The position numbers and the translations under genes are program-made. Shown one piece after another: positions 128-17,151 of a DNA stretch of 44,712 nt (positions are counted from its first letter, which is position 1; each line of letters starts with the position of its first letter). The DNA is from Escherichia phage vB_Eco_Lzu_P1. The notes below the pieces were generated by a model. That model saw only the letters and a list, made by a program, of their open reading frames with translations. It searched no databases and was not told the origin of the DNA. The DNA lies in sequence record PQ295795; one strand, 5' to 3'.

Positions 128-194
128 ACGGCGCATACACGTTAAACAGGGACGAAGCCCCGATGATAACAAACAACAGGACGGAGATAATCAT
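1..194 (-). CDS. Small holin/antiholin-like membrane protein, N-terminal part (ORF runs off window start; completed at 44534..44585 in the other copy)
   Basis: ATG at 194 overlaps the stop of the 191..481 gene (ATGA coupling). Translation MIISVLLFVIIGASSLFNVYAP...LLTAMVCIIGLL has 2-3 hydrophobic helices and no stop before position 1. About 81 aa when joined across the junction. Confidence 0.5.
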   Translation of the reverse strand, partial: MIISVLLFVIIGASSLFNVYAPSVRDGIFGRVLYLLTAMVCIIGLLQTGDVSDTTWTALIWLFA

Positions 195-481
195 TTTGCA
201 CCCCCCGGAAGTCGGAACGACGCAATAGTCTCCCTGATCCGGTCGGCGATTGGCATCCAGAAAATTGCGGTTACGAAGCCCAAACCGGCGACAGTGCGCT
301 CACCCGACAAACCAGCCCACTCGGCGATAGCCGGTGCGCCAAATATGGCACACAGGAAGCCAACTACGACATACAAAACGAAGTTTAGCGGCCCCTTCGT
401 AGCCTCACCATGAATGCGTGCGCCTACGAAGCCACCCGCCAGACATGCCAGGGCGAATAGCCACTCGTTTAGCTTATCCAT
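191..481 (-). CDS. Holin-like membrane protein (96 aa, about 3 TM helices)
   Basis: ORF track; three hydrophobic segments (WLFALACLAGGFVGA, LNFVLYVVVGFLCAIFGAPAIA, VAGLGFVTAIFWMPIA) with a charged C-terminus; sits directly upstream of a second membrane protein and the endolysin in the circular map. Confidence 0.55.
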   Translation of the reverse strand: MDKLNEWLFALACLAGGFVGARIHGEATKGPLNFVLYVVVGFLCAIFGAPAIAEWAGLSGERTVAGLGFVTAIFWMPIADRIRETIASFRLPGGAK

Positions 482-487
482 AAAAAA

Positions 488-516
488 GTCCCAGTAAGTT
501 TTATCTCACTGGGACT
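488..516 (-). terminator. Intrinsic terminator (minus strand) immediately upstream of the holin gene
   Basis: Minus strand reads AGTCCCAGT-gagataaaactt-ACTGGGACT followed by TTTTTT then the holin ATG; 9-bp perfect stem. Confidence 0.55.
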
Positions 517-533
517 ATATCACGCTTGCATAA

Positions 534-821
534 TTAATCGAAAACGGACCACTTGCCGACGCCTTTCCACTCCCACCCGGATGAGCGGACGGCTTCGAAT
601 GTTCGACCGCCTATCATATCCCGATACCACAGCCACCACATGCGCAACCTGGTCGGGTGCTCCGTGATTCCACGGCGCTTGTAGATCTCGAACGTCATGC
701 GGGTAATGCTGGCTGCTTCCACGGCGGGCCATACCAAGAATACCCATATTGCGCCCAGCACTCCCGTAACCAGGCATAACATGCTGGCCATACCAAACCA
801 ATAAATCACATCGTGTAACAT
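534..821 (-). CDS. Small membrane protein (start chosen at internal ATG with AAGGGG RBS; ORF extends to 860)
   Basis: ORF track 534..860; hydrophobic helix IYWFGMASMLCLVTGVLGAIWVFLVWPAV; the overlapping alternative-frame ORF 520..864 is arginine-rich and less protein-like. Confidence 0.45.
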   Translation of the reverse strand: MLHDVIYWFGMASMLCLVTGVLGAIWVFLVWPAVEAASITRMTFEIYKRRGITEHPTRLRMWWLWYRDMIGGRTFEAVRSSGWEWKGVGKWSVFD

Positions 822-942
822 CGAATTGCCCCTTCCGGTTTGCCAATATGGCGCGCCCATGCACGCGCCACGAAGTAATTGCGAAATACCCGACCGCCTA
901 TCTCGAAGCGGTTATGCTGAAGCATATCACGGATCGTCGCAC

Positions 943-1560
943 TCATTTCAGAATCACCGAGCGCGGGTCGATGGCGTTCATGCTGCCGTCTCGTTCCACC
1001 CGGATGAATCCAACGCCATATTCCTGCGCATGGCGCTGTGCATTCGTCACGGCGTCAAAGCGATTGACTATTTGGCGTACTGCGTTGCCCATCTTCGCCT
1101 GCACCTGGTGGGAGTCGTAGGTTGCGTAGGCGGGCTGCGACTTGCGGAACTCCACACGCGTCTTCTGCGCCACGTCACGCGTTACTCGGTTAACTGCGTC
1201 CGCTATGGCGCTCGCTCGCTCATGTGGCTGGCGGTCCCGAAGGTGGTATTTCCGGCCTACTCGCTCGTAGTTGACAAGGCCGAAGTAAGTCATACCGGCG
1301 ACGCCATCCTTGCGGGATTGCATACGCAGGCCATGAAGCCCGACATACTCGACGACCCACATACTGCCGTCGCGAATATCACGCAGCACATCGCCGCGCT
1401 CGATATCATGCGTGAGGATTTCGCATTCCTCCGGCAGCTTGTCTTTCTTCGCCCACCACACCCGATTTCCTGCCGCGTTTTGCAAGCGGACGTGTGCTGC
1501 CAGGGTCTGTATTGGCTTCAGGATTTTGCCGTCTGATTTGCGGCGGAATAGTAATTTCAT
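943..1560 (-). CDS. Hypothetical protein (205 aa)
   Basis: ORF track; strong RBS AAGGAG 8 nt upstream of ATG; same-strand operon context. Confidence 0.6.
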   Translation of the reverse strand: MKLLFRRKSDGKILKPIQTLAAHVRLQNAAGNRVWWAKKDKLPEECEILTHDIERGDVLRDIRDGSMWVVEYVGLHGLRMQSRKDGVAGMTYFGLVNYERVGRKYHLRDRQPHERASAIADAVNRVTRDVAQKTRVEFRKSQPAYATYDSHQVQAKMGNAVRQIVNRFDAVTNAQRHAQEYGVGFIRVERDGSMNAIDPRSVILK

Positions 1561-1632
1561 TGCTCTGTCTCCTTAAAGTTTAACCGTGCCGCGGGGGAGT
1601 GTAATGTTTTGCTAATCGATGCTTTCATAATC

Positions 1633-1869
1633 TTACCTCCTGTACCTGTACATGTTGTCGCCCTCTGCGGCTAGTGGTGACCATTTCGCCCATACAGGCA
1701 CGTCGCGCATACGCGCGCAAAGTTCCTCGGTAGTGTAGTCGTCGATCTCCTCAATTTCTTCGATAGTTTTCGTGTCGCCATCGCACACAGTAGCGATGCC
1801 GTTTTGTTCGTAGTCAAGTACGCACATATGCAGGTAGATATACTCCTGCGAGAATCCGCCTATCATCAT
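1633..1869 (-). CDS. Small protein whose C-terminal half is a diverged copy of the DNA polymerase C-terminus (catalytic residues not conserved)
   Basis: ...DDYTTEELCARMRDVPVWAKWSPLAAEGDNMYRYRR here versus ...DDYTTEELCALMCDLPVWAKGFPLAAEGDIMYRYRK at the end of the 9900..12191 polymerase; nucleotide identity roughly 80 percent over about 110 bp; ATGA overlap with the upstream ORF. Confidence 0.5.
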   Translation of the reverse strand: MMIGGFSQEYIYLHMCVLDYEQNGIATVCDGDTKTIEEIEEIDDYTTEELCARMRDVPVWAKWSPLAAEGDNMYRYRR

Positions 1870-2135
1870 TTGCGCAGTCTCCAGTGTTTGCCTGCCCGCC
1901 CGACTGCGGGCTTCCGGCGTAATGTAATACGGATTCCCATTGGTTGCAAGGAAGTCCGCACCCTGAAATCGTGTTTTGCTGCGAACTGGTGCAAGTAGCG
2001 TGTCTGCGTCAACGGCTTCACATCGTCGCGATAGCTCCAGAACACAGAATCGCCCTCAGTCGCATTCTTAGCCCATATGCGTATGCAATGCAGCGGAATA
2101 TGCCACGAAAGCTGTTTAGCTCGTCTGCGGACCAT
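1866..2135 (-). CDS. Hypothetical basic protein (89 aa)
   Basis: ORF track; AAGGGG RBS; tight packing between flanking minus-strand ORFs; composition somewhat atypical. Confidence 0.35.
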   Translation of the reverse strand: MVRRRAKQLSWHIPLHCIRIWAKNATEGDSVFWSYRDDVKPLTQTRYLHQFAAKHDFRVRTSLQPMGIRITLRRKPAVGRAGKHWRLRK

Positions 2136-2144
2136 TTTGGCCCC

Positions 2145-2450
2145 TTATTTCGCAAGCTGGGCAAATAGTTCGCGCTGTGCTTTAATCCGGGCGACGTTTG
2201 TCACTGCCGTCTCACCGATCCCGAAGCGATACGCCAGGCGCTCGCGGGAGAATGCCTGCGCGTATGCATGGATGGCCTTACGCAACGGCCTCAGTTCGTC
2301 CATGCTGGCGCCCATACCGTAAAGCGCGCTGCGAAGTGATTGATGCGCCAGTATCGCGACCTGAAGCGCCGAGTCTACGTTGCCGTTTAGTGCCTTCGCT
2401 TCGTCCAGCTTTGCCACGGCCAGGGAGTAATTCCAGATAATCGCTTTCAT
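2145..2450 (-). CDS. Hypothetical protein with possible helix-turn-helix (101 aa)
   Basis: ORF track; segment FGIGETAVTNVARIKAQ resembles an HTH; ATGA overlap with the upstream ORF. Confidence 0.45.
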   Translation of the reverse strand: MKAIIWNYSLAVAKLDEAKALNGNVDSALQVAILAHQSLRSALYGMGASMDELRPLRKAIHAYAQAFSRERLAYRFGIGETAVTNVARIKAQRELFAQLAK

Positions 2451-2626
2451 AGTTCCGTAACCCTCTCAACCAGTTTATGCCCTAAACGATAGCTGTCGCC
2501 CCAAAGTAGCAGGCCCATAAATTCATCGATGCTAAACGCTCGCTTGCACACAGTGCGAAGCTCCCCGTTGTGGACTACCGTATCGCCGATCTTGATTTCG
2601 TGCTTATCAACCATTTCGGTTTTCAT
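2447..2626 (-). CDS. Hypothetical small protein (59 aa)
   Basis: ATG at 2626 preceded by AGGAGGG RBS; ORF track extends to 2686 but no RBS there. Confidence 0.45.
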   Translation of the reverse strand: MKTEMVDKHEIKIGDTVVHNGELRTVCKRAFSIDEFMGLLLWGDSYRLGHKLVERVTEL

Positions 2627-2646
2627 GTTCCGCCCTCCTATTGGTG

Positions 2647-2690
2647 TGCAACCAATATAGCAGGGTGCTGGGGTGGATGCAACCAATATT
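2647..2690 (-). promoter_or_regulatory. Sigma70-like promoter (minus strand) built from two direct copies of the ATATTGGTTGCA motif
   Basis: Minus strand: TTGCAT - 17 nt - TATATT, second motif copy ending about 20 nt before the RBS of the 2626 gene. Confidence 0.5.
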
Positions 2691-2841
2691 AATCACGCGC
2701 ATGAAAAAGTCGATCGCTATCCGTTGCAACTGCAAACTGCATTTTTCACACCCCATTCAGCAACTCGCATTGGTTGCCTAGTTCAGTGACGACCGCAATC
2801 CGCAACATGCTGCCGTGTATTTTGCAATCCCGGATTTTATG

Positions 2842-3012
2842 CAGTCTCAGACGAGGGGGGCCATTGACCCCCGTCTAGTCTGAAAGACTGGGCTTTGTCC
2901 CGCCTGTCCCGCTCCCCTCCAGGCCGCGTCATCTGTGGGCGGGACGGGGTGCTGTCCCGCTTTGTCCCGCCTCCTGTTTGTCCCGCTTTTTGTCCCGCTT
3001 ACTTTATGCAGT
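2842..3012. repeat. Non-coding hairpin plus GTCCCGC iteron element, copy A
   Basis: 2842-2911 identical to 30662-30731 (70 bp); imperfect hairpin AGACGAGGGGGG-ccattga-CCCCCGTCT; at least six direct TGTCCCGC units plus one inverted; ends with TTTATGCAG as in copy B. Confidence 0.85.
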
Positions 3013-3104
3013 TTTATTGCATAACTATGCATTATATTCACACTACACGGCAACCAATGTGACCAGATAAAAACGCTCAAAATGGAAACCAATGCGCGCA
3101 AAAT

Positions 3105-5369
3105 TTAATCGTTCAGGTCGTCATCGGTCGCCGAAAGCGTGATGGGGATATCCGATTTGATGACTAAATTCGACGACCCATATATGGCCCCGGTGTGCGG
3201 ATCTGTATAGAAACCGATCACGCCGCGCTCAACCATATCGTCGATTGCCTTCGTCGAAGTGCCCCCCTTCGCGAGTCCTGCCTGGCGGACTATTGCCGAT
3301 TTACTGAAACCAGTATGGTCCGGGTTATCTTCCATCAGTTTTTCCAGGGCCGCGTAAAGTACCTTTTCTTTTTCGGTGCGCGGTCCGGCGGTGTTCTCAT
3401 CCTTAACTGCGGCTTTTCCTGCGGCCTTCGCCTGTTCTATAGCGAACGGTGCCAGGGCGACCGGTACGAGGTATAAAGTCTCGTCGCGCGGGGTGGACGC
3501 AATTGGTTTGACGTCCCAACCAGCAACTACGTCACCGAAGTCTGGCCCGGTGCTGGTGGACTGGTGCGACGCGAACGCTTCTGACTTGCGGAGATCTACC
3601 GCCACCTTGCACTTGAGCAGGACGAAGCCACGCGGCGCTTGCTTGATGCCGTTACGTGACTTTTCGTGATACAGGTTAAGTTGTCCCGGCTGGTTGTCGT
3701 CCGGCTGTTCCAGGAAGAAAGCTGAATCGACAGCGCCATGCAGTGCGCCGGATCCGCGTGGGGTTCTGCTGCCGTTTGCACCCTTCGCCGGGTGGTGGAT
3801 GACGCCCGCACTGCCACCTGTGTTTTCCGCAATGGCCTTCAGCGCTTTGACCACTTCACCCATATCGCTGGCGTTGTTCTCGTCAAACGGTTTAGCATCG
3901 GCGGACCGCAGCGCAACAGTCTGGTTGAGTGAGTCGAACGCCACCAGGCCAACAGGTTCGCCGTTAGCGGTGCGGTTGATAAAGCTGATAACTTCGCGCA
4001 AACCGGACTTGCTGGTGATATCCCAGCCGCGAGACTGCAGGTCGATAATGTGCAGCTTGTCCAGGTCGTGCTCGTATTTAATCTGCAATGCTTCTTTGCG
4101 CTGGTTGGAGGCTTCGCCGCCTTCCGCGTCGAAATAGAAGCAATGAGACTGGACGACCTTCGCACCGCCAAACGGGATACCCGCGGCAACCGCGCCCATT
4201 TGGCCCAGCACATAGAAAGACTTACCGATATTCGACTCACCAGCCATATACCAGGTTGATTTAAAGTTAATCAACCCCTCGATTATCGGGTCGTGCTTGC
4301 TGAACAGTGCGACCGGCTCGTTATCCAGATCCGCATCGGTGCACACGCCGTATTCTTCGCCGTCGCCAACCGCATCAACAATATGATCATATAAGGATTC
4401 TACTTCCTCGTCGTCCAGACCTGGCAGGATGGCGGCGATTTGCTTACGTGACATGTTGTGCGGCTCGACGTTCAGGTGGTCCGGTATCCCGATAAGACGT
4501 AGCGCCAGGTGCTGGTGTCTATTTAGCTCAGAGCAACACTCGTTGCCGGTGTGCATACACTTGAAACGGATCTCGCCATCCTTGACCATGATAGCCGTCG
4601 ACCCTTCGCCGCTGTGCAGATGTTCGTTCGGGCACGGCACTTCATAACCGCGACCGGAAGATAACTCCTCGAATCCTGCCTGGAAGCACCAGTCCAGAAT
4701 GCCGTCAGCCACTGCGTCGTCGCCCTGGGTAAGCTCACGGCGTACTTCCTCTTTCTCCACTCCCAGCTTGTCAGCCAGGCGAAGCAGACGACGCACACTG
4801 GCGCGCTTGCCGTAGTGACACTTAATAACAGACTGCTGGTGTGGTAGGTACATAAGACGGTTTGTGTCTTTCGTGCAGTCGTCGAAGTCCACATCAGACA
4901 GGCCCAGTTGGTCTAACAGCGCGTACTGGACGCGGCCCAGGTCTTCCGCCGGTACTGGTTTATCTGTGAGCACAAGGAAACGGGCGCAACGCGTGCCGCC
5001 TTTCAGCGGGTGGCGGTCGCCGGTGGTTGTGTGGAATACGTGCTCCAGCCCCGCGTCGATAAAAGCCTTACGGCAGCGGCGTAGGGTGCGAGTGTCGGTG
5101 CGGTCAATATCAAAGAACAGGATCGAGCGGTCCACCGCACTGGTCTTGCGGCGTAGGCCGTCACTGGTATATGCCACGATGCCATCGGCCTTACGCTTGC
5201 GGCGCGCATACTCGGCTTTATCTTCCGTCTTGTTGATATGCACCGAGGAGATTTCTTTCGCGTCATTGATAAATTCGAAAAATTCATCGGTGGTCATCTG
5301 GAAGTTTTCCGCCCTGGCTTTTTCGCCTTTTTTAGCGGGTCGTGTTACCGCGAATTTAATTAAGCTCAT
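3105..5369 (-). CDS. DNA primase-helicase (N-terminal primase-polymerase-like domain, RecA/DnaB-like ATPase with Walker A GESNIGKS)
   Basis: 754-aa ORF; Walker A GESNIGKS, cysteine/histidine cluster CPNEHLH...CMHTGNECC, acidic FFDIDRTD motif typical of primase-polymerase domains. Confidence 0.7.
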   Translation of the reverse strand: MSLIKFAVTRPAKKGEKARAENFQMTTDEFFEFINDAKEISSVHINKTEDKAEYARRKRKADGIVAYTSDGLRRKTSAVDRSILFFDIDRTDTRTLRRCRKAFIDAGLEHVFHTTTGDRHPLKGGTRCARFLVLTDKPVPAEDLGRVQYALLDQLGLSDVDFDDCTKDTNRLMYLPHQQSVIKCHYGKRASVRRLLRLADKLGVEKEEVRRELTQGDDAVADGILDWCFQAGFEELSSGRGYEVPCPNEHLHSGEGSTAIMVKDGEIRFKCMHTGNECCSELNRHQHLALRLIGIPDHLNVEPHNMSRKQIAAILPGLDDEEVESLYDHIVDAVGDGEEYGVCTDADLDNEPVALFSKHDPIIEGLINFKSTWYMAGESNIGKSFYVLGQMGAVAAGIPFGGAKVVQSHCFYFDAEGGEASNQRKEALQIKYEHDLDKLHIIDLQSRGWDITSKSGLREVISFINRTANGEPVGLVAFDSLNQTVALRSADAKPFDENNASDMGEVVKALKAIAENTGGSAGVIHHPAKGANGSRTPRGSGALHGAVDSAFFLEQPDDNQPGQLNLYHEKSRNGIKQAPRGFVLLKCKVAVDLRKSEAFASHQSTSTGPDFGDVVAGWDVKPIASTPRDETLYLVPVALAPFAIEQAKAAGKAAVKDENTAGPRTEKEKVLYAALEKLMEDNPDHTGFSKSAIVRQAGLAKGGTSTKAIDDMVERGVIGFYTDPHTGAIYGSSNLVIKSDIPITLSATDDDLND

Positions 5370-5379
5370 TGCCGTTGCC

Positions 5380-5709
5380 TTACTTCGAAGTTTTATTATT
5401 GCGTACCCAGGAGCGCACGGTGCTCTGATTAATTCCTGTCAACTCAGCGATCATTGCCCAGGATTTGCCCTCGGCGCGCAAACGGATAACCTGTTTTTTG
5501 TATTCTTCCATTTCGTCATTGTGCTTTTGCAGCTTGCTTGCTGCCGTGCCGTTGAGTAATTCCAGCTTCGCGGTAAGCTCCTTCTCAGCACGCGATAATC
5601 TGGACACTTCAAATAACAGAGTATCCACCGCATTTGTGTAATACCAGGATTTACCCGCTTCGCCGCGGATTGCATTAGATAACACTTCAATTGCTTCTTT
5701 GATATTCAT
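5380..5709 (-). CDS. Helix-turn-helix DNA-binding protein (putative transcription regulator)
   Basis: C-terminal GKSWAMIAELTGINQSTVRSWVRN is a classic HTH; first gene of the minus-strand block next to the divergent promoter region. Confidence 0.55.
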   Translation of the reverse strand: MNIKEAIEVLSNAIRGEAGKSWYYTNAVDTLLFEVSRLSRAEKELTAKLELLNGTAASKLQKHNDEMEEYKKQVIRLRAEGKSWAMIAELTGINQSTVRSWVRNNKTSK

Positions 5710-5740
5710 AATTCAGTCTCCTGTTGGCTAATGACCAACG

Positions 5741-5769
5741 AAACTACACCCAAAACTGCACGGTGTCAA
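5741..5769 (-). promoter_or_regulatory. Sigma70-like promoter for the minus-strand block
   Basis: Minus strand: TTGACA - 17 nt - TAGTTT, about 30 nt upstream of the RBS of the 5709 gene. Confidence 0.45.
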
Positions 5770-5839
5770 ATCCTTTGGATATTGAAACGGGCGCGCACGC
5801 GTGTAATAATAATTCCCGTCTCATTGTCTCTTATTGGTT

Positions 5840-5875
5840 AGCGCCGTCGCATTTTGCTTCGGCGCTTTTTTTTTT
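5840..5875 (+). terminator. Intrinsic terminator (plus strand) with T10 tract
   Basis: AGCGCCG-13 nt loop-CGGCGCT followed by TTTTTTTTTT; no plus-strand CDS upstream. Confidence 0.6.
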
Positions 5876-5885
5876 AAATTAGTTG

Positions 5886-5914
5886 TTGACTCCCTTCTGC
5901 AACCAATCTAATAT
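5886..5914 (+). promoter_or_regulatory. Early promoter (sigma70-like) for the plus-strand replication block
   Basis: TTGACT - 17 nt - TAATAT; spacer contains TGCAACCAAT motif. Confidence 0.55.
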
Positions 5915-6110
5915 TCACCTCGTCGACAGGATGCAGGAAGCAAACTGGAGAGGGGCAACGCAGGGGCCGGATCGAAGTGTCAGGATTCCCAACCGTGATT
6001 ATATAACCCGGTCCACTACCCGAAAGGGAGAACGCGCAACCGGGCGCTATGTTAAGGCCACCGACGAAGTTAATGGTCGACACCTAAACTTAACCAATCG
6101 GAGATATACC

Positions 6111-6650
6111 ATGTTTGAGCAAATCGTAAACCTGATCACTCGCGGCGTAGTAGCCCTGGAAATCATCGCTAAGCATTATGAAACCGTTGGCGCTGCCGTA
6201 GACCCAAAAGCAAACGGCACCGCTAAGAAAGGCAAGGCCAAGCCGGAGAACGAAGTCGAAGACGACGATCAGGACGAAGTCGAAGATACGCCCAAAGCGA
6301 AAAAAGGCGCGGCAAAAGAAACCAAGTCTAAAGGTAAGGCCAAAAAAGAAGTCGTAGAGGATGACGACGAGGATGAAGCCGAAGACGAAAAACCGGCTAA
6401 AACCAAAAAAGCACCAGCGAAAGGCAAAGGTAAGAAAGATGCCGATCCGCTGGCAGAGATGCGCGACGAAATCAAACAGTATGCCGCGATTATCGCAGGC
6501 GGTGATGACGACGATGCGAACGACGAATTCGACGACCTGCTGGAATCGTTCGAGATCAAATCAATCGCTAAACTGGAAGACGACGACGTGGAAGACTTCC
6601 ACAAAGACCTGAAAGAAATCGTCGAAACTTATTTCGAACTGGAAGATTAA
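6111..6650 (+). CDS. Highly charged low-complexity protein (alternating acidic and lysine-rich blocks), first early gene
   Basis: ATG at 6111 with GGAGAT RBS; 179 aa with runs such as EDDDQDEVED, KAKKGAAKETKSKGKAKK, GGDDDDANDEFDD; ORF track 5883..6650 includes an upstream extension without RBS. Confidence 0.6.
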   Translation: MFEQIVNLITRGVVALEIIAKHYETVGAAVDPKANGTAKKGKAKPENEVEDDDQDEVEDTPKAKKGAAKETKSKGKAKKEVVEDDDEDEAEDEKPAKTKKAPAKGKGKKDADPLAEMRDEIKQYAAIIAGGDDDDANDEFDDLLESFEIKSIAKLEDDDVEDFHKDLKEIVETYFELED

Positions 6651-6656
6651 TATTAT

Positions 6657-6686
6657 CCGGCCCGCAGATTAGCGGGCCTCTTTTTA
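6657..6686 (+). terminator. Intrinsic terminator
   Basis: GGCCCGC-agatta-GCGGGCC followed by TCTTTTT. Confidence 0.6.
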
Positions 6687-6698
6687 GAGGACGAGACA

Positions 6699-6950
6699 AT
6701 GGCACGCTTCACGCTAATAGAGGCGGTGGATTCCCGCGACCAGCGCCCATATTATTGGCTATTCGAACGCATCGGCAGCTTTCAATCACGCGTTGCCGTA
6801 ATTGATAAACGCCGCACTACACCCGCGCAAATTAAGCGCACCACCTTTACCAATCCAGACTTTTATATTTGGGCTGACTCCAATCTGGAATATGTTCGCT
6901 TCGCCGTTGCATCCGAAGCAAAAACAATTGACCGCTGGGAGACAAAATAA
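6699..6950 (+). CDS. Hypothetical protein (83 aa)
   Basis: ORF track; GAGGA RBS. Confidence 0.5.
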   Translation: MARFTLIEAVDSRDQRPYYWLFERIGSFQSRVAVIDKRRTTPAQIKRTTFTNPDFYIWADSNLEYVRFAVASEAKTIDRWETK

Positions 6951-7139
6951 ATGGCTATATTTTTCGTTTTATTTCGCTGCCGTATCACTGGCGACGAGAT
7001 ACCAGAAATAATCAGGCATGAGAACTGGCTTTGCTGTTGGGGGAAAGCCTGCGACCTGGCTTTGACAATGAACGAAGACGCGAAGCGGGACAATGTTGAA
7101 CACGATTATTACATTGCTCAATTTTCAAGGGTGGAATAA
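6951..7139 (+). CDS. Hypothetical protein (62 aa)
   Basis: ORF track; start abuts previous stop, stop overlaps next start (TAATG). Confidence 0.4.
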   Translation: MAIFFVLFRCRITGDEIPEIIRHENWLCCWGKACDLALTMNEDAKRDNVEHDYYIAQFSRVE

Positions 7140-8569
7140 TGGCGATTAAACCAAAACGTAAAACGCAATCCGGTAGCAATACGGAACACTCATTACTCGG
7201 GCCATCCGGTGCTAAAAAATGGATGGGTTGCCCTGCCGCCCTGGTGGTGGAAAAAGATATCCCGAACGAATCCGGGCAGGCGGCGATTAACGGTACGAGT
7301 ATGCACACCGTATCTGAAGTTGTGCTAAACCGCATTATCGCCGGTGAAAAGCTGATAACCGCAAAGACGTATAAAGGATGCTACGTCGAGAACGAAGGCA
7401 AGGGACCAGTAAAGGCCCACCCGAAAGCACCGAAAGGCGGCGTACTGGTCAACGACGATATGGTGAAACAGTGCGACGCGTACATCGACCACTGGCGACC
7501 GCTCCTCGAAGTGGCGGAGTTTGTCCAGCTTGAGATGCGCGCCGATCTCACCCGCGTCCTCCACCATGGCGTCGAGATCGACGGTAACAGGGTTAAGACG
7601 TTCGGCACTGCCGATATGGTCATGATCATGAAGAAGACCGATGGCACGTACATGCTGATTGTTGGCGACCTGAAGACCGGGCGACATAAGGTCGAGGCGA
7701 AAGAAAACAAACAGCTTATGTTGTACGCGCTCGGCCTGCTGCGCAAGCTGCAAACCATGTACGACATTACGACCGTGCGCCTGGTCATCTTCCAGCCGTA
7801 TTGCGGCGGGGCGTCAGAGTGGGATATCTCAGTGGAAGCGCTGGAGATATTCGCGAAGTTTGCGTCCAAGCGTGCTATCGCCGCGCTCGATGCATACGCC
7901 CGTGGCAAGAAGGGACTGACCCGCGCCGACTTCCGACCGAGCGTTGATGCGTGCCAGTGGTGCAGATTTGCGGACCAGTGCAGCGTCCGGGCGAAGGCCG
8001 CAATCGACACGATGACGCCACCAACGGCAACCGACGAAGACCTTGGCGACGACGTGAGCGTGGCAACCGAGGAAGAGTGCGCCAACCAAGACCGCAATAT
8101 GACCCGCGAAGCCCGGAAGGCTGCCCGACGTGCTAAACGGGGCAAGAAGGAATCCACCCCAGGCGCTATGAGCGCGGCGGAACTGCGCAAGGCTTATGAA
8201 GGACTTGACGCAATGCGCCAGCACATCAAAGCTATCGAGTACGCGGTATTCAAGGCGGTCATGGCGGGCGATGGCGAATCGTTGGGCCTTAAGATGGTTG
8301 CCGGTAAGGAAGGGATCCGTAAGTGGGCAGACGAGAGCGAAGTGATTGAAATCTTCACGAAGGCCCGGATCAAGCGCGATGTGATGTACAAAGAAACATT
8401 GCTCAGCCCGACCGATGCCGAGAAGGTACTGAAGGACGAGAAGCCGAAAGTGTGGGCGAAGCTGTGTGCTAAAATCACACGCGCACCTGCAAAACCGGTG
8501 TTAGCACCAATCGACGACCCGCGCCCCGCGTGGTCTGAAGCTACTGACGAGGACTTAAGCAATGAATAA
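7139..8569 (+). CDS. PD-(D/E)xK-family nuclease with C-terminal cysteine cluster (Cas4/RecB-like phage exonuclease)
   Basis: Motifs GTADMV ... IVGDLKTG (D...D-x-K) and C-terminal CQWCRFADQC; paired with the downstream SSB-like gene. Confidence 0.55.
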   Translation: MAIKPKRKTQSGSNTEHSLLGPSGAKKWMGCPAALVVEKDIPNESGQAAINGTSMHTVSEVVLNRIIAGEKLITAKTYKGCYVENEGKGPVKAHPKAPKGGVLVNDDMVKQCDAYIDHWRPLLEVAEFVQLEMRADLTRVLHHGVEIDGNRVKTFGTADMVMIMKKTDGTYMLIVGDLKTGRHKVEAKENKQLMLYALGLLRKLQTMYDITTVRLVIFQPYCGGASEWDISVEALEIFAKFASKRAIAALDAYARGKKGLTRADFRPSVDACQWCRFADQCSVRAKAAIDTMTPPTATDEDLGDDVSVATEEECANQDRNMTREARKAARRAKRGKKESTPGAMSAAELRKAYEGLDAMRQHIKAIEYAVFKAVMAGDGESLGLKMVAGKEGIRKWADESEVIEIFTKARIKRDVMYKETLLSPTDAEKVLKDEKPKVWAKLCAKITRAPAKPVLAPIDDPRPAWSEATDEDLSNE

Positions 8570-8804
8570 AGTATTCGCATTCTTATTGATGATTATGCTC
8601 GGTGCGCTGGGCTTTATCCTGCATTGCGTGCAAGGCGTGTTAATGGTAGCCTGGATGATTCGCCATCCGACCCGCTGGCTGGACGATGGCTATAGTGACG
8701 CTGCCGTAGACTGGGTGGGGAAGAACATCGACCGACCGCCGTTAAGCTGGATTGAGAACGCCACCAACTACGTGACCAGAAATCTTTTTAATAAAAGTGC
8801 TTGA
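8562..8804 (+). CDS. Small membrane protein (80 aa)
   Basis: ORF track; hydrophobic N-terminus VFAFLLMIMLGALGFILHCVQGVLMVAWMI; start overlaps previous stop. Confidence 0.45.
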   Translation: MNKVFAFLLMIMLGALGFILHCVQGVLMVAWMIRHPTRWLDDGYSDAAVDWVGKNIDRPPLSWIENATNYVTRNLFNKSA

Positions 8805-8829
8805 CCGCGCAGGCGCAACCAAGTAAATT
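8801..8829 (+). promoter_or_regulatory. Sigma70-like promoter
   Basis: TTGACC - 17 nt - TAAATT upstream of the SSB-like gene; spacer carries GCAACCAAG twice. Confidence 0.45.
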
Positions 8830-8894
8830 GGCAACCAAGCCGAACGGGGTGGCTCACAATAACCCCGATACATGTGAAAATGAGGAATTGGAAA

Positions 8895-9674
8895 ATGGCT
8901 AAAGTCAACCTGAAAAATGTGCGCGTATGTTTCCTGAATATTTGGGAACGTGATACCCCTAAACAGGCTGGGCAAAAACCGGCATACCGCGCCGTGATTC
9001 TTCTGGATAAAGAAGATCCGCAGGTGGACAAAGTGGAAGCGGCAGCGCGCGCAGCGCTCACCGTCAAGCTGAAATCCGAGAAGAATGCCGATAAGTGGAT
9101 GGACCGCCACTACGCCCAGGATTCTAAGGAATGCGCAGTCCGCGACGGTGACGAGCGCGACGAAGTAACCGAAGAATTCGAAGGCATGTTGTACATCAAC
9201 GCCAAATCGTTCAAGCAGCCAAACATTCAAACGTCACTCGGCGAGAAGCAGACTGAACAAGGTCTGACCGTAGAAGGCGACGAGATCGAAGGCCAGGAGA
9301 TCTACTCCGGTTGTTATTGCAACGTGTCACTGGATATTTGGGCGTGGAACAATACCAACGGCAAGGGACTCGGTGCTGGGCTTTTAGGTCTGCGCTTCCG
9401 TGATGACGGCGAAGCCTTCGGCGGTGGCGGATCTTCTTGCTCCGACGAAGACCTGGGCGACGATGACGAAAGCCCGCGCAAGTCCAAAAAGTCAAAACGT
9501 CGTGATGACGATGACGAAGATGACAAGCCGCGCAAGTCCAAAAAGTCCAAGCGCCGCGATGACGATGACGACGACGAAGATGAAAAACCTCGTAAACGTC
9601 GTAAGCCACGCGACGATGAAGATGAGGACGAAGACGACGAAGACGAAGCACCACGTAAACGTCGCCGTCGTTAA
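8895..9674 (+). CDS. Putative single-stranded DNA-binding protein with repetitive acidic/basic C-terminal tail
   Basis: ATG at 8895 with GAGGA RBS; N-terminal MAKVNLKNVRVCFLNIWE pattern and acidic tail resemble phage gp2.5-type SSBs; location next to exonuclease and polymerase. Confidence 0.4.
   Translation: MAKVNLKNVRVCFLNIWERDTPKQAGQKPAYRAVILLDKEDPQVDKVEAAARAALTVKLKSEKNADKWMDRHYAQDSKECAVRDGDERDEVTEEFEGMLYINAKSFKQPNIQTSLGEKQTEQGLTVEGDEIEGQEIYSGCYCNVSLDIWAWNNTNGKGLGAGLLGLRFRDDGEAFGGGGSSCSDEDLGDDDESPRKSKKSKRRDDDDEDDKPRKSKKSKRRDDDDDDEDEKPRKRRKPRDDEDEDEDDEDEAPRKRRRR
9474..9660 (+). repeat. Imperfect tandem repeat (about 57-bp unit, 2-3 copies) inside the SSB-like CDS
   Basis: ccgcgcaagtccaaaaagtc...gatgacgatgac repeated, encoding PRKSKKSKRRDDDDEDDK twice, then a degenerate third copy. 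Confidence 0.75.
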
Positions 9675-9692
9675 GGGCAAAGCCCACTATTC

Positions 9693-9718
9693 AAGCCCGC
9701 TTAATGCGGGCTTTTTAA
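9693..9718 (+). terminator. Intrinsic terminator
   Basis: AAGCCCGC-ttaat-GCGGGCTT followed by TTTTAAT. Confidence 0.6.
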
Positions 9719-9732
9719 TAGGACAATGAAAA

Positions 9733-9903
9733 ATGCGCATTAAAGCCAGCGAAGTAAAAGTCGGAATGCGAGTATGGTCCAAGCTACTGGGGGAATATTT
9801 CACCGTTGCCGAGATTCGCAACAACGGCGAGGAGATAACACTTTCCGACGGTATCTTCTCCATGATCGGCAGCGCTGACGCCGTAGTGAGGATTAAGCAA
9901 TGA
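9733..9903 (+). CDS. Small protein (56 aa) translationally coupled to the DNA polymerase
   Basis: ATG at 9733, stop TGA overlaps polymerase ATG (ATGA); below the 60-aa track threshold; weak RBS. Confidence 0.35.
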   Translation: MRIKASEVKVGMRVWSKLLGEYFTVAEIRNNGEEITLSDGIFSMIGSADAVVRIKQ

Positions 9904-12191
9904 AAGACTTCGAACGCCTGTTTCTCGATACCGAGACATTTAGCGGGGTAGACCTGAAGAAAGTTGGCGCATACGCCTACGCAGAGCACCCAACCACCGA
10001 GATTATGATTTGCACCTACGCCATCGACGAGGGCCGCGTGCAGACATGGGATTGCACCGAGTCCCCCACAATGCCACGTGAACTGCGCAAGGCGCTCCGC
10101 CAGGTATCCCGCAAGAAAGCAAAAATCGTGATGGCTAACGGCCTCCTGTTTGACCGCCTGGTTATTCGCGAGAAGTGGGGCATTGACCTGCCAGTGTGCC
10201 AGATCGAAGACACCATGATTATGGCCTTCCGACACGCGCTGCCGGGTAGTCTCGACATGCAGTGCCAGGTGCTGGGCGTTGACGCAGAACACGCGAAGGA
10301 TAAGGCTGGCAAGGCGCTGATCAAACGATTCTGTAAGCCAACCCCTAAGACCTACAAAATCCGCCGCTACACCCGCGAGACTCACCCTGAAGAATGGGCT
10401 AAATTCCTGCGCTATGCCGCGCTGGATATCATCGCGATGAGGGAAGTCTATTGGCGCATACCGGACTGGGGTAATACGCCGAAGGAAGACGAAATCCTGC
10501 TTATTGACCAGTTGATTAACGACCGCGGCTTCTATGTGGACGTTGACCTGGCACGCGCTGCGATCAAAGCGGTACAGGCGCATAAGGAAGAATTAAAGGA
10601 AGAAGCCCGGGAGCGCTTCGGCGGTAAGCTAACCGGAAATGACTTCCTGCCAGCGCTGCGCGACCTCGCGCCTGCGTTCACAATCCACAACGCGCAGAAA
10701 TCCACGCTTAACGACCTGCTGGAAGATCCAGACTTCCCCGATGAAGGCAAAGTGCTTATCGAGATGCGCCTCGGAGCGTCATCAACGGCGTCGACTAAAT
10801 ACAATCCGCTCGTAAATGGTCTGTCTTCCGATGGTCGCCGCCGTGGGTGTCTTCAGTATGGTGGGGCAAAGCGCACGCTACGCTGGGCCGGTAAAGGCTT
10901 CCAGCCGCAAAACCTGGCGCGAGGCGAGTATAGCGACGACCACGAGGGGAAGATTAAGCGCCGTGAGGGCGAGAGCGATATATCCTTTTGGGTGCGGTCG
11001 CACATGCTCACCAACGGCATCAACTCCCTGTTACGCGGGACCGCACACTGGGCGTATGACATATCGAAGCTAACGGCCTCGACCGTTCGCGGGTGCATTA
11101 TTCCGGCGAAGGGCAAGAAGTTTGTCGTCGCGGACTACTCCAACGTGGAAGGGCGCGGCCTTGCCTGGATCGCTGGCGAGAAAACCGCGCTAATGGTGTT
11201 TAGGGCCGGTCGCGATATTTATTGTGAGACTGCCGGTAAGATGTTCGGCCTCGATCCGGAATACATTAAAGCCAACCGCAAAGACTTACGCCAGATTGGT
11301 AAGGCGTGTGAGTTGGGACTTGGCTATGGCGGCGGCGTGGCTGCGTTCTTGCAGTTCGCTAAAAACCTGGGCCTCGACCTTTATGCGATGGCTGACGTGA
11401 TGAAGGGCACATTCCCCGATCACATTTGGGCGGCGGCGAAACGTGGTTATGAGTATGCCCGCATTAACGAAGCGAAGCGCCCGCCGAAGCCGGGCAAGAA
11501 GGACGAGCGCCCGACTTACATACTGCCGAAAAACGTATGGCTTACGTGTGATGCGATTAAACGCATGTGGCGCGAGGCTCACCCGAAGACGGTAGCATTT
11601 TGGGCCGAGCTTGAGGACGCGGTGCTCTGCGCGATCCGCAATCCGGGCAAAGCGTACTGGGCTGGCGCGAACGTTCGCCCGGATGGTAAGAAAGCGCTCA
11701 AGATAGTCCGCACGAAGGCGAAGCATGACCCAACCTTCGACGAGGAGCGCGACGACCCGAACGCCGCTGGGTGGTGGTTGAAAATTGAGTTGCCGTCTGG
11801 GCGTATTATGAGTTACCCAGGCATTGCGCTGTCAGTGACGACCGAGATCGACGAAGACACCGGCAAGAAACGCACCAGCACCCGCATTAAATATCAGGGT
11901 GAGAATCAGACGACGCGCCAGTGGGGATTCCAGTACACCTACGGCGGCAAACTCACGGAAAACATCGTGCAGGCGCTGTGCCGCGATATCCTCGCATGGT
12001 CCATGCCGGGCGTTGAAGCTGCGGGGTATGAAATCGTCCTGTCAGTGCACGATGAACTGATAACCGAAGTGCCGGATACCGACGACTACACAACCGAGGA
12101 GTTGTGCGCGCTGATGTGCGACCTGCCGGTTTGGGCGAAAGGCTTCCCGCTTGCCGCGGAAGGCGACATTATGTACAGGTACAGAAAATGA
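9900..12191 (+). CDS. Family-A (Pol I-like) DNA polymerase with 3'-5' exonuclease domain
   Basis: 763 aa; Exo I motif LDTETF, motif A DYSNVEGR, motif B RQIGKACELGLGYGGG, motif C VHDEL. Confidence 0.9.
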   Translation: MKDFERLFLDTETFSGVDLKKVGAYAYAEHPTTEIMICTYAIDEGRVQTWDCTESPTMPRELRKALRQVSRKKAKIVMANGLLFDRLVIREKWGIDLPVCQIEDTMIMAFRHALPGSLDMQCQVLGVDAEHAKDKAGKALIKRFCKPTPKTYKIRRYTRETHPEEWAKFLRYAALDIIAMREVYWRIPDWGNTPKEDEILLIDQLINDRGFYVDVDLARAAIKAVQAHKEELKEEARERFGGKLTGNDFLPALRDLAPAFTIHNAQKSTLNDLLEDPDFPDEGKVLIEMRLGASSTASTKYNPLVNGLSSDGRRRGCLQYGGAKRTLRWAGKGFQPQNLARGEYSDDHEGKIKRREGESDISFWVRSHMLTNGINSLLRGTAHWAYDISKLTASTVRGCIIPAKGKKFVVADYSNVEGRGLAWIAGEKTALMVFRAGRDIYCETAGKMFGLDPEYIKANRKDLRQIGKACELGLGYGGGVAAFLQFAKNLGLDLYAMADVMKGTFPDHIWAAAKRGYEYARINEAKRPPKPGKKDERPTYILPKNVWLTCDAIKRMWREAHPKTVAFWAELEDAVLCAIRNPGKAYWAGANVRPDGKKALKIVRTKAKHDPTFDEERDDPNAAGWWLKIELPSGRIMSYPGIALSVTTEIDEDTGKKRTSTRIKYQGENQTTRQWGFQYTYGGKLTENIVQALCRDILAWSMPGVEAAGYEIVLSVHDELITEVPDTDDYTTEELCALMCDLPVWAKGFPLAAEGDIMYRYRK

Positions 12192-12469
12192 TGACACCAG
12201 AAGGCAAGATTCAAAGTCACCTTATGAAGCTGGTGAAAGCCGTCGGCGGATTCTGCCGAAAACTGGCATGGGAGGGGCGCGCAGGAGCGCCCGACCTCAT
12301 AATCATCATCAACGGCAAGATAGTTTTCGTCGAAGTGAAGCGCCCAGGCGGTAAACCTAAGCCGCACCAGGTACGAGAACATGAGCGAATGGCCTGCCGC
12401 GGTGCGGACGTTCGCGTCATCGACAACATAGCCGACTGTGATTTATTGGTTGCTGAATTGGTCGCGTAG
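12188..12469 (+). CDS. VRR-NUC domain nuclease
   Basis: ATG overlaps polymerase stop (ATGA); GAPDLIIIINGKIVFVEVKRPGGKPKPHQ matches the VRR-NUC D...E-V-K core. Confidence 0.6.
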   Translation: MMTPEGKIQSHLMKLVKAVGGFCRKLAWEGRAGAPDLIIIINGKIVFVEVKRPGGKPKPHQVREHERMACRGADVRVIDNIADCDLLVAELVA

Positions 12470-12509
12470 CAGTATAGTGGGCCGGTTAGCCCTATCGAGG
12501 ATTTTAGAA

Positions 12510-12683
12510 ATGGTTGAAGAAAAACGTTGTAGTAATTGCGGTTGTGTTAAACCGCTATCCCAGTTCCATAAATACACCGGTAAGACTGCGCGAAGCCCGG
12601 ACGGGTATCGGGCAGAGTGCAAATCGTGCCGCAATAAAAAAGAGCGCGAACGGCAGCGCCGCTACCGCGCAGAGCAAAAATAA
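12510..12683 (+). CDS. Small zinc-ribbon protein (C-x2-C ... C-x2-C), possible transcription factor
   Basis: ATG at 12510 with GAGGA RBS; CSNCGC ... CKSC pattern, basic C-terminus. Confidence 0.4.
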   Translation: MVEEKRCSNCGCVKPLSQFHKYTGKTARSPDGYRAECKSCRNKKERERQRRYRAEQK

Positions 12684-12689
12684 TTAATA

Positions 12690-12715
12690 CGGCGGGCTTG
12701 TCCCGCCATTTTTGG
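12690..12715 (+). terminator. Intrinsic terminator (stem contains the TTGTCCCGCC motif)
   Basis: GGCGGG-cttgt-CCCGCC followed by ATTTTTGG. Confidence 0.5.
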
Positions 12716-12726
12716 GAGACATGACG

Positions 12727-12945
12727 ATGAAAGAACATTATCGACTCACCACACTTGGCGAATGCAAACCAGGCGATCGCGTATGGTTTATCGCGGGCAT
12801 GAATTACCCGCTGCCGTTAACGGTGTGCTGGCAAAAATTTAAGAGCTTCCAGGCGACGGGTGTACACATCGGACACGCCACCAACTACGACGCCACAAAA
12901 AGGAACTGGAACAGTGAGACAGAAGTCTGGAAAAAGGCGGAATAA
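12727..12945 (+). CDS. Hypothetical protein (72 aa)
   Basis: ATG at 12727, GGGAGA RBS 7 nt upstream; track ORF 12712..12945 starts at TTG. Confidence 0.45.
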   Translation: MKEHYRLTTLGECKPGDRVWFIAGMNYPLPLTVCWQKFKSFQATGVHIGHATNYDATKRNWNSETEVWKKAE

Positions 12946-12949
12946 AGAT

Positions 12950-14374: not shown

Positions 14375-15081
14375 CTATTGCTAAAATGACAATCTGGTCA
14401 TTATTTGACGGCAGCGGCTTGATGATTGAGCGTGCTGCCGAGATGGGGAATAAGTGTTATTGCTTCAACTACTCCGAAGCCGATCACGGGTCGTACCTGG
14501 ACTACCGGATTTATGGGCGCGGTATCCGATATCGTAATGAGTTTATCGATCTGGACTTCGTGGACCGCGCGATGAATGGTGATTTTGGTACGCCGGATAT
14601 CATCTACGCATTCCCGCCGTGTACTGATCTGGCGGTGAGCGGTGCGCCAGCTTTCCCGCGTAAGCGTGCAAAAGACCCAGCCTTTCAGATTAAGGCGGTG
14701 CGCACCGCGAAGATCGCCGCTTACCTGGGTGATTTCTTCGAAGTGCCATATATGATTGAGAATCCGCGCAGCGTGCTATCAACTCAATGGCGTAAGCCGG
14801 ACCACTCGTTTGACCCGTGGGAGTATGGCGGATATCTGCCGGAGGATGACGTGCACCCGTTATTCCCGGAATACATCAACGCCCGCGATTCATATCCGAA
14901 GTTGACCTGCTTATGGACCGGCAACGGCTTCCGTATGCCAGAGAAGAAACCTGTTTTCGTTGAAAAAGGGTACTCGAAGCAGTATAGTCGCCTCGGAGGC
15001 AAATCAGCCCGCACAAAATTAATCCGGTCGCTCACCCCGCGCGGCTTCGCGATAGCGGTTAACGAGGAAAATTTAAAATGA
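14371..15081 (+). CDS. DNA C5-cytosine methyltransferase-like protein (short, small target-recognition region)
   Basis: Motif I-like LFDGSG, motif IV-like FPPC, motif VI-like ENP, motif X-like RSLTPRGF; ATGA overlap with helicase. Confidence 0.45.
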   Translation: MTIAKMTIWSLFDGSGLMIERAAEMGNKCYCFNYSEADHGSYLDYRIYGRGIRYRNEFIDLDFVDRAMNGDFGTPDIIYAFPPCTDLAVSGAPAFPRKRAKDPAFQIKAVRTAKIAAYLGDFFEVPYMIENPRSVLSTQWRKPDHSFDPWEYGGYLPEDDVHPLFPEYINARDSYPKLTCLWTGNGFRMPEKKPVFVEKGYSKQYSRLGGKSARTKLIRSLTPRGFAIAVNEENLK

Positions 15082-15401: not shown

Positions 15402-15406
15402 ATTGG

Positions 15407-15435
15407 TTGCATAATCATATTGGTTGCATTATATT
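15407..15435 (+). promoter_or_regulatory. Sigma70-like promoter formed by two direct ATTGGTTGCA motif copies
   Basis: TTGCAT - 17 nt - TATATT; motif copies at 15402-15411 and 15417-15428. Confidence 0.55.
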
Positions 15436-15482
15436 GAGGGTGTCCGGTTTGGACGCCCTTTTTAATACCTGGAGACAACACG

Positions 15483-17101: not shown

Positions 17102-17151
17102 AAACACATCGGGAGGCAACGCCGCCTCCCACTAAAAAAAAGGAAAACATC

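Follow-up and report, generated by a model that had tools for sequence, protein, structure and literature searches.

The DNA analyzed here (the window) is the whole 44,712-nucleotide (44.7-kb) sequence of record PQ295795, and it is a complete Dhillonvirus genome similar to those of HK578 and SSL-2009a. When the control region was used as a BLAST query, 192 phage records were recovered. Nearly all of these are Escherichia phages of the genus Dhillonvirus (HK578, SSL-2009a, JL1, SO-1 and relatives), and the highest identity was to phage SD276 (99.4%). Genes on the minus strand occupy positions 191-5709 and 18615-44547, genes on the plus strand occupy 6111-18589, and 5710-6110 is the sole divergent control region of the genome. 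Our analysis concerns a promoter-like site followed by a hairpin and a T-run, referred to below as the cassette. A first-pass annotation had placed it within the divergent control region and upstream of the early promoter, and we found the same arrangement. All of the plus strand upstream of the cassette is antisense to minus-strand genes. The features of the region are as follows.

3105-5369, minus strand: helicase-primase gene, left of the control region
5380-5709, minus strand: gene for a gp47-like helix-turn-helix protein (109 aa), left of the control region
5741-5746, minus strand: -10 element of the leftward promoter, TAGTTT (weak; 17-nt spacer), read from the sequence
5764-5769, minus strand: -35 element of the leftward promoter, TTGACA, read from the sequence; the promoter drives the gp47-like gene and helicase-primase operon
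5782-5787, plus strand: -35 element of the candidate small RNA promoter, TTGAAA, annotated as a promoter in HK578
5802-5810, plus strand: extended -10 element of the candidate promoter, TG-t-AATAAT (TG at 5802-5803, AATAAT at 5805-5810), 17 nt past the -35 element
5811-5817, plus strand: discriminator, from the -10 element to the predicted start
5818-5873, plus strand: predicted small RNA of about 55 nt
5818-5839, plus strand: unstructured 5' region of the predicted RNA, GUCUCAUUGUCUCUUAUUGGUU, with two GUCUC repeats (5818-5822 and 5826-5830)
5840-5866, plus strand: terminator hairpin, AGCGCCG-uc-GCA-uuu-UGC-uu-CGGCGCU (7-bp outer stem, 2x2 internal loop, 3-bp inner stem, UUU loop)
5866-5875, plus strand: T10 tract directly after the hairpin, the U-tail of the terminator
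5886-5914, plus strand: early promoter, TTGACT-17-TAATAT, with a GCAACCAAT motif in the spacer; annotated as a promoter in the HK578 record
6111, plus strand: first ATG of the early operon, right of the control region

Within approximately 180 bp, the region combines two divergent promoters with a terminator and a putative UP element. The leftward promoter and the candidate promoter are back-to-back, with their -35 hexamers 12 bp apart around a near-palindrome. The early promoter begins 10 bp past the T-run, and its start is predicted at about position 5921. The 9-mer in its spacer, GCAACCAAT, is present in 13 copies genome-wide, mostly at or near promoter-like sites. Separately, we noted that the 5' leader of the early operon (approximately 5921-6085, about 160 nt) is a covarying structured RNA that is common to unrelated phage groups and absent from Rfam.

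Existing GenBank records describe parts of this region. All three promoters are annotated, by consensus, in the HK578 record (JQ086375), and the hairpin is annotated as a terminator in the records of CS16 and WF5505. No GenBank record annotates an RNA gene at the cassette, and several records call a spurious 'hypothetical protein' there. We found no study of Dhillonvirus transcription, transcriptomes or small RNAs in the literature, and there was no paper containing the small RNA or leader sequences. The promoter and the terminator are therefore already known as separately annotated elements. For the reading of the two as an RNA gene, the conservation footprint and the putative anti-Shine-Dalgarno repeats, we found neither an annotation nor a publication.

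A candidate promoter and an intrinsic terminator

The first-pass annotation described the candidate promoter as TTGAAA and TAATAA (5804-5809) separated by a 16-nt spacer. Both hexamers are present, and a better reading has a 17-nt spacer and an extended -10 element (TG plus AATAAT). The -10 element sits within an AAT repeat, so its register may shift. The candidate promoter matches the sigma-70 consensus (TTGACA/TATAAT, spacer of 17 ± 1 nt) at 10 of 12 positions and has the extended -10 element in addition. There were two sites with 10 of 12 matches genome-wide (both strands, 89 kb), and the TG was found at the candidate promoter only. It is the top sigma-70 match of the 44.7-kb genome. Because the total number of promoter-like matches in the genome is no greater than that in shuffled sequences, the match alone proves little, and the argument for this promoter rests on the rank of the site and on its conservation.

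The promoter is followed at a distance of approximately 30-55 nt by the terminator. The first-pass report of a hairpin with a T10 tract at 5840-5875 was borne out, and folding supports a strong terminator: the hairpin has a predicted energy of -16.2 kcal/mol (z = -3.3), and none of 200 shuffled sequences was equally stable. A simple terminator scan missed it, and did so only through the internal loop, with which the apparent loop exceeds 8 nt. The element has what is expected of an intrinsic terminator, a G+C-rich stem-loop with a U-run of at least 6-8 nt directly after it, and pairing that is kept across relatives. There is no U-run after the hairpin on the minus strand, and the terminator is therefore one-way, acting on plus-strand transcripts.

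Taken together, these elements would specify a short RNA. Host RNA polymerase with sigma-70 would start at TTGAAA-17-TGtAATAAT, at about G5818, and transcription would halt about 55 nt further on at the intrinsic terminator formed by the hairpin (5840-5866) and the U-run. Promoter geometry, folding and conservation were used to predict a 5' end at G5818 ± 1 and a 3' end in the T-run. The predicted RNA, from G5818 to approximately U5872, consists of GUCUCAUUGUCUCUUAUUGGUU, then the hairpin, then U(n). Its 5' region (5818-5839) is unpaired in both the minimum free energy and the centroid folds. The product would thus have 22 unstructured CU-rich nucleotides with two GUCUC repeats, an A/U-rich stretch, a hairpin and a poly-U tail.

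Hfq-dependent small RNAs that act by base pairing usually have a hairpin between an A/U-rich stretch and a long U-tail. The A/U-rich UUAUUGGUUA just 5' of the hairpin and the U10 after it match this layout, by prediction. The predicted product is thus laid out like a base-pairing small RNA, one that probably binds Hfq.

We found nothing in the cassette that points to a protein product or to a previously described RNA. The first-pass statement that the plus strand has no coding sequence here agrees with our finding of no conserved plus-strand open reading frame (ORF), since indels break the overlapping ORFs in relatives. There is no ATG between the -10 element and the hairpin. Two small plus-strand ORFs (5724-5882 and 5731-5841) were considered and rejected as coding; both start upstream of the promoter, and 1- to 2-nt indels break their frame in relatives. 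Rfam 15 gave no match at the gathering score anywhere in the window, with c4 antisense RNA and the enterobacterial small RNA families included. When E-values up to 10 were allowed for 5700-6150, there were only chance terminator-like matches (E = 0.16-7.6), which scored 10-22 bits compared to thresholds of 35-72. ARAGORN identified no tRNA or tmRNA.

The two plus-strand promoters, which are arranged in tandem ahead of the early operon and separated by a terminator, could also be read as an attenuator. The candidate promoter would then be a second early promoter, mostly stopped at the terminator and released at a set time by an antitermination factor from the phage or the host. This seems very unlikely. 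The 22-nt leader has no alternative antiterminator pairing, and a competent promoter lies 10 bp past the terminator. The covarying leader RNA, which might modify polymerase, is downstream of the terminator and so cannot act on it.

Conservation of the cassette among Dhillonviruses

All 154 Dhillonvirus records contained the 110-bp cassette, each covering at least 80% of it. Identity was at least 86% in all relatives and at least 95% in 135 of them. The gp47-like gene was also found in 154 records, the same number; its protein is approximately 76% identical in most records and is replaced in HK578 and CHD5UKE2. A pattern scan of IMG/VR recovered only the same Dhillonviruses and no more-divergent copy. 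In a metagenome scan, the matches listed were mostly chance 16-mers and included at least six Dhillonvirus contigs. Five of the contigs listed were 93-97% identical, and another (L129) was an adapter chimera with approximately 85 matching nucleotides. No match to the cassette was obtained by BLAST in 5,426 E. coli genomes, a result that excludes long similarity only.

We also looked at three sister phages that have the same gene order, Hafnia phage TS33, Salmonella phage Shemara and Edwardsiella phage eiAU-183. The hairpin/T-run cassette was absent from all three. They do have divergent promoters, and an A/T-rich segment precedes the early -35 element. Because sister groups with the same gene order lack the hairpin and T-run, the cassette is a Dhillonvirus innovation. 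That these groups do without it counts against the reading as a small RNA gene.

Variation within the cassette was distributed very unevenly. We counted variable positions over 26 distinct cassette versions. In the leftward promoter, the -35 element, a perfect TTGACA, had no variable position (0/6) and the -10 element had one (1/6). HK578 differs in that homology stops within the spacer of the leftward promoter and another -10 element (CATAGT) is used. In the candidate promoter, one of the six positions of the -35 element was variable, the variants being TTGAAC in CHD5UKE2 and TTGAAT in one metagenome contig, and none of the nine positions of TGn plus the -10 element varied. The discriminator was variable at every position (7/7) and had 1-nt indels, with near-invariant sequence on both flanks. 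Of the 22 nt that follow the predicted start (5818-5839), a single position was variable. In addition, phage Opt212 has a 4-nt insertion in the 5' region that creates a third GUCU unit. The hairpin was variable at 9 of 27 positions with pairing retained, and the T-run varied in length from 8 to 13 and was never lost.

Pairing and covariation in the hairpin were evaluated with 12 distinct sequences. Every cell in the hairpin columns was able to pair (100%), and the covariation score was reached in none of 500 shuffles. There were two compensatory changes, G-C to U-A and G-C to C-G, plus one change from A-U to G.U. All of these changes were confined to the Ioannina clade (Ioannina, LM40P1 and L005), and they represent one or two events; that they come from one clade only is due to all relatives being at least 86% identical at the cassette. 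The G.U pair would be a C.A mismatch on the opposite strand, which points to an RNA made from the plus strand.

An invariant promoter, a variable discriminator, an invariant transcript and a maintained terminator make up the footprint expected of a promoter that drives a sequence-dependent RNA. The first-pass annotation had suggested two roles for a terminator with no coding gene to terminate: ending a short regulatory transcript or insulating the early promoter from antisense read-through. The comparative evidence favors the regulatory transcript, which remains a prediction, in that the hexamers, the 22 nt and the stem pairing are conserved and the discriminator is variable. Insulation is the weaker of the two suggestions. 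The genome scan found no other plus-strand promoter-like site between 191 and 5782, so the only obvious client of the terminator is the candidate promoter, and insulation leaves the conserved promoter and RNA body unexplained. We therefore lean, with limited confidence, toward the prediction that a discrete functional RNA is made from the cassette. By a similarly modest preference, we predict that the cassette is an independently transcribed small RNA gene of the Dhillonviruses.

Possible roles of the cassette as DNA

An explanation that requires no functional RNA is that the conserved elements act as DNA. The candidate promoter might recruit RNA polymerase to, or compete for it with, the leftward promoter beside it. 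The terminator might protect the early promoter from run-over, the T-run might be an UP element, and the conserved 22 nt might be a protein-binding site. Several properties of the region are consistent with such an architecture, including the -35 hexamers just 12 bp apart around a near-palindrome, the weak leftward -10 element (TAGTTT), and the use in this genome of a repeated DNA motif, GCAACCAAT, at promoters. The T-run occupies approximately -55 to -46 relative to the early promoter, where a distal UP element would lie, and the DNA there is A/T-rich in relatives that have no cassette. Based on this position and on established promoter architecture, the T-run probably also serves as an UP element of the early promoter.

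Other observations are more difficult to accommodate if no RNA functions here. If the output of the candidate promoter were unwanted, loss of the promoter would be simpler than keeping a perfect -10 element and a strong terminator in 154 genomes. In addition, the G.U change in the hairpin is neutral for a plus-strand RNA only. We searched 5700-6120 for consensus sites of IHF, Fis, CRP, DnaA and LexA and found none. A copy of AACCAAT within the RNA was considered as a protein-binding site and rejected; it reads TAACCAAT and does not belong to the enriched GCAACCAAT family, and copies outside this family occur at the chance rate.

DNA that serves as both terminator and promoter is reportedly common (Fletcher et al., bioRxiv 10.64898/2026.08.19.745784), and this also favors a role as DNA. 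In the promoter-coupled terminators described there, termination occurs at most 35 bp before the next start, most often at 10 bp, and the T-tract or the stem acts as the spacer or the -35 element. The cassette is loosely similar to this class in having a terminator directly upstream of a promoter on the same strand and a T-tract that is plausibly reused. However, its T-tract is at the position of an UP element, and approximately 46-50 bp separate the predicted 3' end (about 5872) from the predicted early start (about 5921), a distance beyond the 35-bp limit that places the cassette outside the class. Overall, it seems unlikely that DNA-level architecture with no functional RNA is the explanation for the cassette.

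The location of the cassette next to the gp47/helicase-primase operon raises the alternative that the short RNA serves to activate or prime an origin of replication. In HK578, one mutant able to escape OLD defense maps to the intergenic region containing the cassette, and the authors of that study linked this deletion in the promoter region to replication initiation. They attributed the effect to expression of gp45-gp46 and not to an origin, and the text of the study gives no coordinates. In addition, the cassette has no iterons, no DnaA boxes and no extended AT-rich unwinding element, clustered repeat motifs are located elsewhere (2650-3093), and a terminated and released RNA of 55 nt is a poor model for a primer. 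We give a role at an origin a very low probability.

Candidate targets of the predicted small RNA

If the cassette is a small RNA gene, its 5' region suggests what the RNA might recognize. The GUCUC repeats may act as an anti-Shine-Dalgarno mimic, pairing with the ribosome-binding sites (GGAGAU/GAGAC) that precede the first early genes of the phage itself. The complementary sites that we considered are the following.

6091-6106, plus strand: candidate target 1, UAACCAAUCGGAGAUA, covering the Shine-Dalgarno (SD) sequence of the first early gene (ATG at 6111); pairs with 5825-5840 of the small RNA
6693-6701, plus strand: candidate target 2, GAGACAAUG, an SD-like motif and the start codon of the second early gene; exact 9-mer complement of 5822-5830 of the small RNA
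6939-6943, plus strand: candidate target 3, GAGAC within the SD sequence GGGAGAC of the third early gene (ATG at 6951); rank 3 of 54 by duplex energy

The predicted duplex with target 1 has 8 bp, one C.U mismatch and a further 7 bp, with an energy of about -18 kcal/mol (p = 0.011 compared to 3,000 dinucleotide-shuffled seeds). That with target 2 has an energy of -17.2 kcal/mol (p = 0.10), and GAGACAATG at this site is retained in nearly all relatives. The GGGAGAC of the third gene is retained even where the downstream gene differs. GAGAC at early genes 2 and 3 is kept across clades; the SD sequence of gp47 in many relatives is not GAGAC. Within the genome, the SD region contains GAGAC in 6 of 30 non-structural genes compared to 0 of 24 structural genes.

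We ranked 54 translation-initiation regions, corresponding to the annotated genes of the 99%-identical phage SD276, by duplex energy with the small RNA. Early genes 1, 2 and 3, gp47 and the helicase-primase gene ranked 4, 12, 3, 5 and 10, respectively. All five genes flanking the control region were therefore among the top 12 of 54, a result matched by 1 of 400 dinucleotide shuffles for a set that was picked after the ranking had been seen. For the same post hoc set, the mean energy advantage was -5.7 kcal/mol, compared to -1.0 ± 1.1 kcal/mol in the shuffles.

Other results did not single out these sites. The best of the 54 translation-initiation regions was no better than that obtained with shuffled seeds (p = 0.19), and many sites in a genome-wide duplex scan equaled or exceeded the proposed target. 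Any CU-rich RNA pairs with purine-rich SD sequences. In the Ioannina clade, both pairing partners have changed, and the cognate pairing is not improved: we detected no co-variation between the small RNA and the ribosome-binding site of the first early gene, and cognate pairs were no better than non-cognate pairs. We also evaluated pairing between the hairpin loop and the leader (5850-5860 with 5937-5947) and rejected it; it is at approximately the level expected by chance, and the changes in HK578 are not compensatory.

Based on sequence complementarity, we suggest tentatively, and with appreciable doubt, that the targets of the small RNA are the early ribosome-binding sites of the phage. The accumulating RNA would then damp or time translation of the first early genes. 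Extended to both divergent arms, the proposal is that the GUCUC repeats of the 55-nt RNA occlude the GGAGAC-type sites of the early genes, forming an RNA timer that would turn off early translation with increasing RNA levels and would need no protein repressor. We consider this form of the model speculative and doubtful.

Alternatively, the small RNA may be real and act on mRNAs or factors of the host (a stress, envelope or defense transcript, for instance) and not on the phage early genes. The evidence for an RNA gene applies equally in this case, and the evidence for phage targets is weak and without co-variation. Known phage and prophage small RNAs often target host genes. On the other hand, with host targets the preference for the flanking early translation-initiation regions would have to be a coincidence. 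We regard host targets as a rather unlikely alternative.

Comparison with known regulatory RNAs

By analogy, the cassette would work most like a stand-alone base-pairing small RNA with a pyrimidine anti-SD seed. C/U-rich anti-SD small RNAs with an Hfq-type 3' module include the RsaE-type UCCC small RNAs and the enterobacterial Hfq class I small RNAs. The Dhillonvirus candidate resembles these in having its own promoter, its own intrinsic terminator, a poly-U tail and an A/U-rich stretch 5' of the hairpin, and in having a conserved, unstructured seed in which a pyrimidine motif complementary to ribosome-binding sites is repeated. It differs in that the repeat is GUCUC and not UCCC, and in being encoded in the main control region of a virulent siphophage. 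In contrast to known Hfq small RNAs, it matches no Rfam family, and its Hfq binding and its targets are predictions.

Two other groups of short phage RNAs are similar in some respects. The oop RNA of lambda and the sar RNA of P22 are short, terminator-ended RNAs from phage control regions that are cis-antisense, overlapping a target on the opposite strand. Like the Dhillonvirus candidate, they are 55-80 nt long, are transcribed from a constitutive sigma-70 promoter up to a strong intrinsic terminator, and are located in an early regulatory region. Unlike them, the Dhillonvirus RNA lies upstream of the start of the leftward promoter and is antisense to no transcript. There was no minus-strand promoter-like site in 5770-6150, and the RNA does not qualify as cis-antisense on this basis. 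Because transcription from the leftward promoter leads away from the cassette and the minus strand has no promoter-like site to the right, no overlapping transcript from the opposite strand is expected.

The second group comprises the immunity RNAs of temperate elements (c4 of P1 and P7, CI of P4 and CB of N15), which are processed from longer transcripts. As in the proposed arrangement, these are small RNAs located upstream of, and on the same strand as, the genes that they control, and they pair with short boxes near a downstream ribosome-binding site. The Dhillonvirus candidate is distinguished by a promoter and a terminator of its own and by its position upstream of the early promoter, and it matches none of the Rfam models, that of c4 among them.

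Implications

Dhillonviruses are in wide use. Tests of anti-phage defense employ HK578, SECphi4/18 and several BASEL phages, and others are therapy candidates. If no small RNA is made, the cassette still shows how a promoter pair, a terminator and an UP element can be laid out within about 180 bp. If the small RNA gene is real, it would join the few stand-alone small RNAs known from virulent coliphages that depend on host RNA polymerase, and the phage would provide a simple system, amenable to genetics, in which early genes are timed by RNA. The RNA would also matter for engineering this intergenic region and for interpreting the escape mutations that map there.

A conserved, structured leader RNA in the early operon

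We found a conserved, structured RNA of ~160 nt at the head of the early operon. Its 5' end coincides with the start site predicted for the early promoter.

Leader region and flanking genes
5380-5709, minus strand: fast-evolving helix-turn-helix (HTH) gene adjoining the control region (seen in homologous loci L018, from phage HK578, and L019)
5921-6085, plus strand: leader RNA of the early operon
5931-6078: leader core, present or absent as a clean indel of ~148 nt (homologous loci L007, L013, L015, L020, L021 and L023)
6111-6650, plus strand: first early protein, extremely charged and of low complexity

Homologues of the leader were detected in Jilinvirus Arya, Sortsnevirus IME279, BUCT618 and several IMG/VR contigs, and also in the Drexlerviridae phages Motto, PHB17, JLBYU38 and swan01. 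Their cores are 73-92% identical, and each lies directly 3' of a sigma-70-like promoter and 5' of unrelated genes. Analysis of 10 sequences with RNAalifold gave a fold of 28 pairs, 11 of which had compensatory changes, with pairing maintained in 95.4% of cells. The covariation score was 0.312, compared to 0.129 ± 0.019 in shuffled alignments (none of 500 reached it) and ≤0.09 in slid controls. An invariant G·U in the fold marks the plus strand.

The leader core is missing from YD-2008.s, Envy, SP1, rolling, Ioannina and others, in which the same flanking sequences are separated by just a short stub. In the window, the core shares the reading frame of the first early gene from an ATG at 5931 onwards, and the annotation of the 99%-identical relative SD276 gives the long form of this gene, starting at the equivalent leader ATG. 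The leader homologues of other phages are intergenic.

Variation in and around the control region

The HTH protein is 76% identical in most relatives. In HK578 and CHD5UKE2, its gene has been swapped for a different one that has only the C-terminal HTH in common, and the adjacent intergenic DNA is still ~94% identical. Database names for the protein differ and include Gam-like inhibitor, transposase, resolvase and HTH protein. On the other side of the control region, the first early protein has lysine-rich runs that alternate with Asp/Glu-rich runs, and a second protein of this kind is encoded at 8874-9674. Both are possible DNA mimics or nucleoid-binding proteins.

The HK578 mutant esc2, which partially escapes the P2 OLD defence (2026 preprint), maps to the intergenic region homologous to 5710-6110. 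The preprint text, which gives no coordinates, does not place the mutation relative to the candidate small RNA (sRNA) cassette in this region. The metagenome contig L129, homologous to 5762-5846, follows phage sequence as far as the 5' arm of the cassette's terminator hairpin, continues into Illumina adapter (ACACTCTTTCCCTACACGACGCTCTTCCGATCT), and then returns to phage sequence. L129 is an assembly chimera.

Other terminators

6659-6678, plus strand: strong intrinsic terminator, GGCCCGC-agatta-GCGGGCC followed by TCTTTTT
18588-18615: two-way terminator, AAAAGGGGCC-gtat-GGCCCCTTTT

The first of these lies between early genes 1 and 2, and implies partial termination or antitermination within the early operon. 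All relatives keep it, also where the leader RNA is absent. The rightward early arm meets the leftward late arm precisely at the two-way terminator.

A repeated 9-mer and a stretch lacking a convincing ORF

The 9-mer GCAACCAAT occurs 13 times in the window, compared to ~0.3 copies expected. There are 18 copies of AACCAAT, compared to 5.4 ± 2.3 in shuffled sequences, none of 100 of which reached 18.

Copies of the 9-mer and associated sites
1939, 2650, 2681, 2769, 3052, 5901, 12445, 15402, 15419, 17077, 20455, 36562, 43797: all copies
5899-5907: copy in the early-promoter spacer
17073-17101: perfect palindrome, GCAACCAA-TAG-TTGGTTGC, spanning a promoter-like site
36562: copy immediately 5' of TATAAT
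43835-43806: promoter-like site with a copy immediately 3'
2451-3104: ~650-bp stretch 3' of the helicase-primase gene

The motif looks like an operator for a phage transcription factor. Four copies fall in the stretch at 2451-3104, together with one more AACCAAT at 3087 and a 15-bp hairpin at 2937-2972. This stretch, in which no convincing ORF was found, is a possible origin or other regulatory region.

Relation of the leader to known RNAs

The Dhillonvirus leader RNA is similar in position to putL of HK022 (PMC9378689), but is twice as long and of a different build. There was no Rfam match to the leader, even at E values up to 10, and we found no paper containing its sequence. The leader RNA may be more novel than the sRNA cassette itself.
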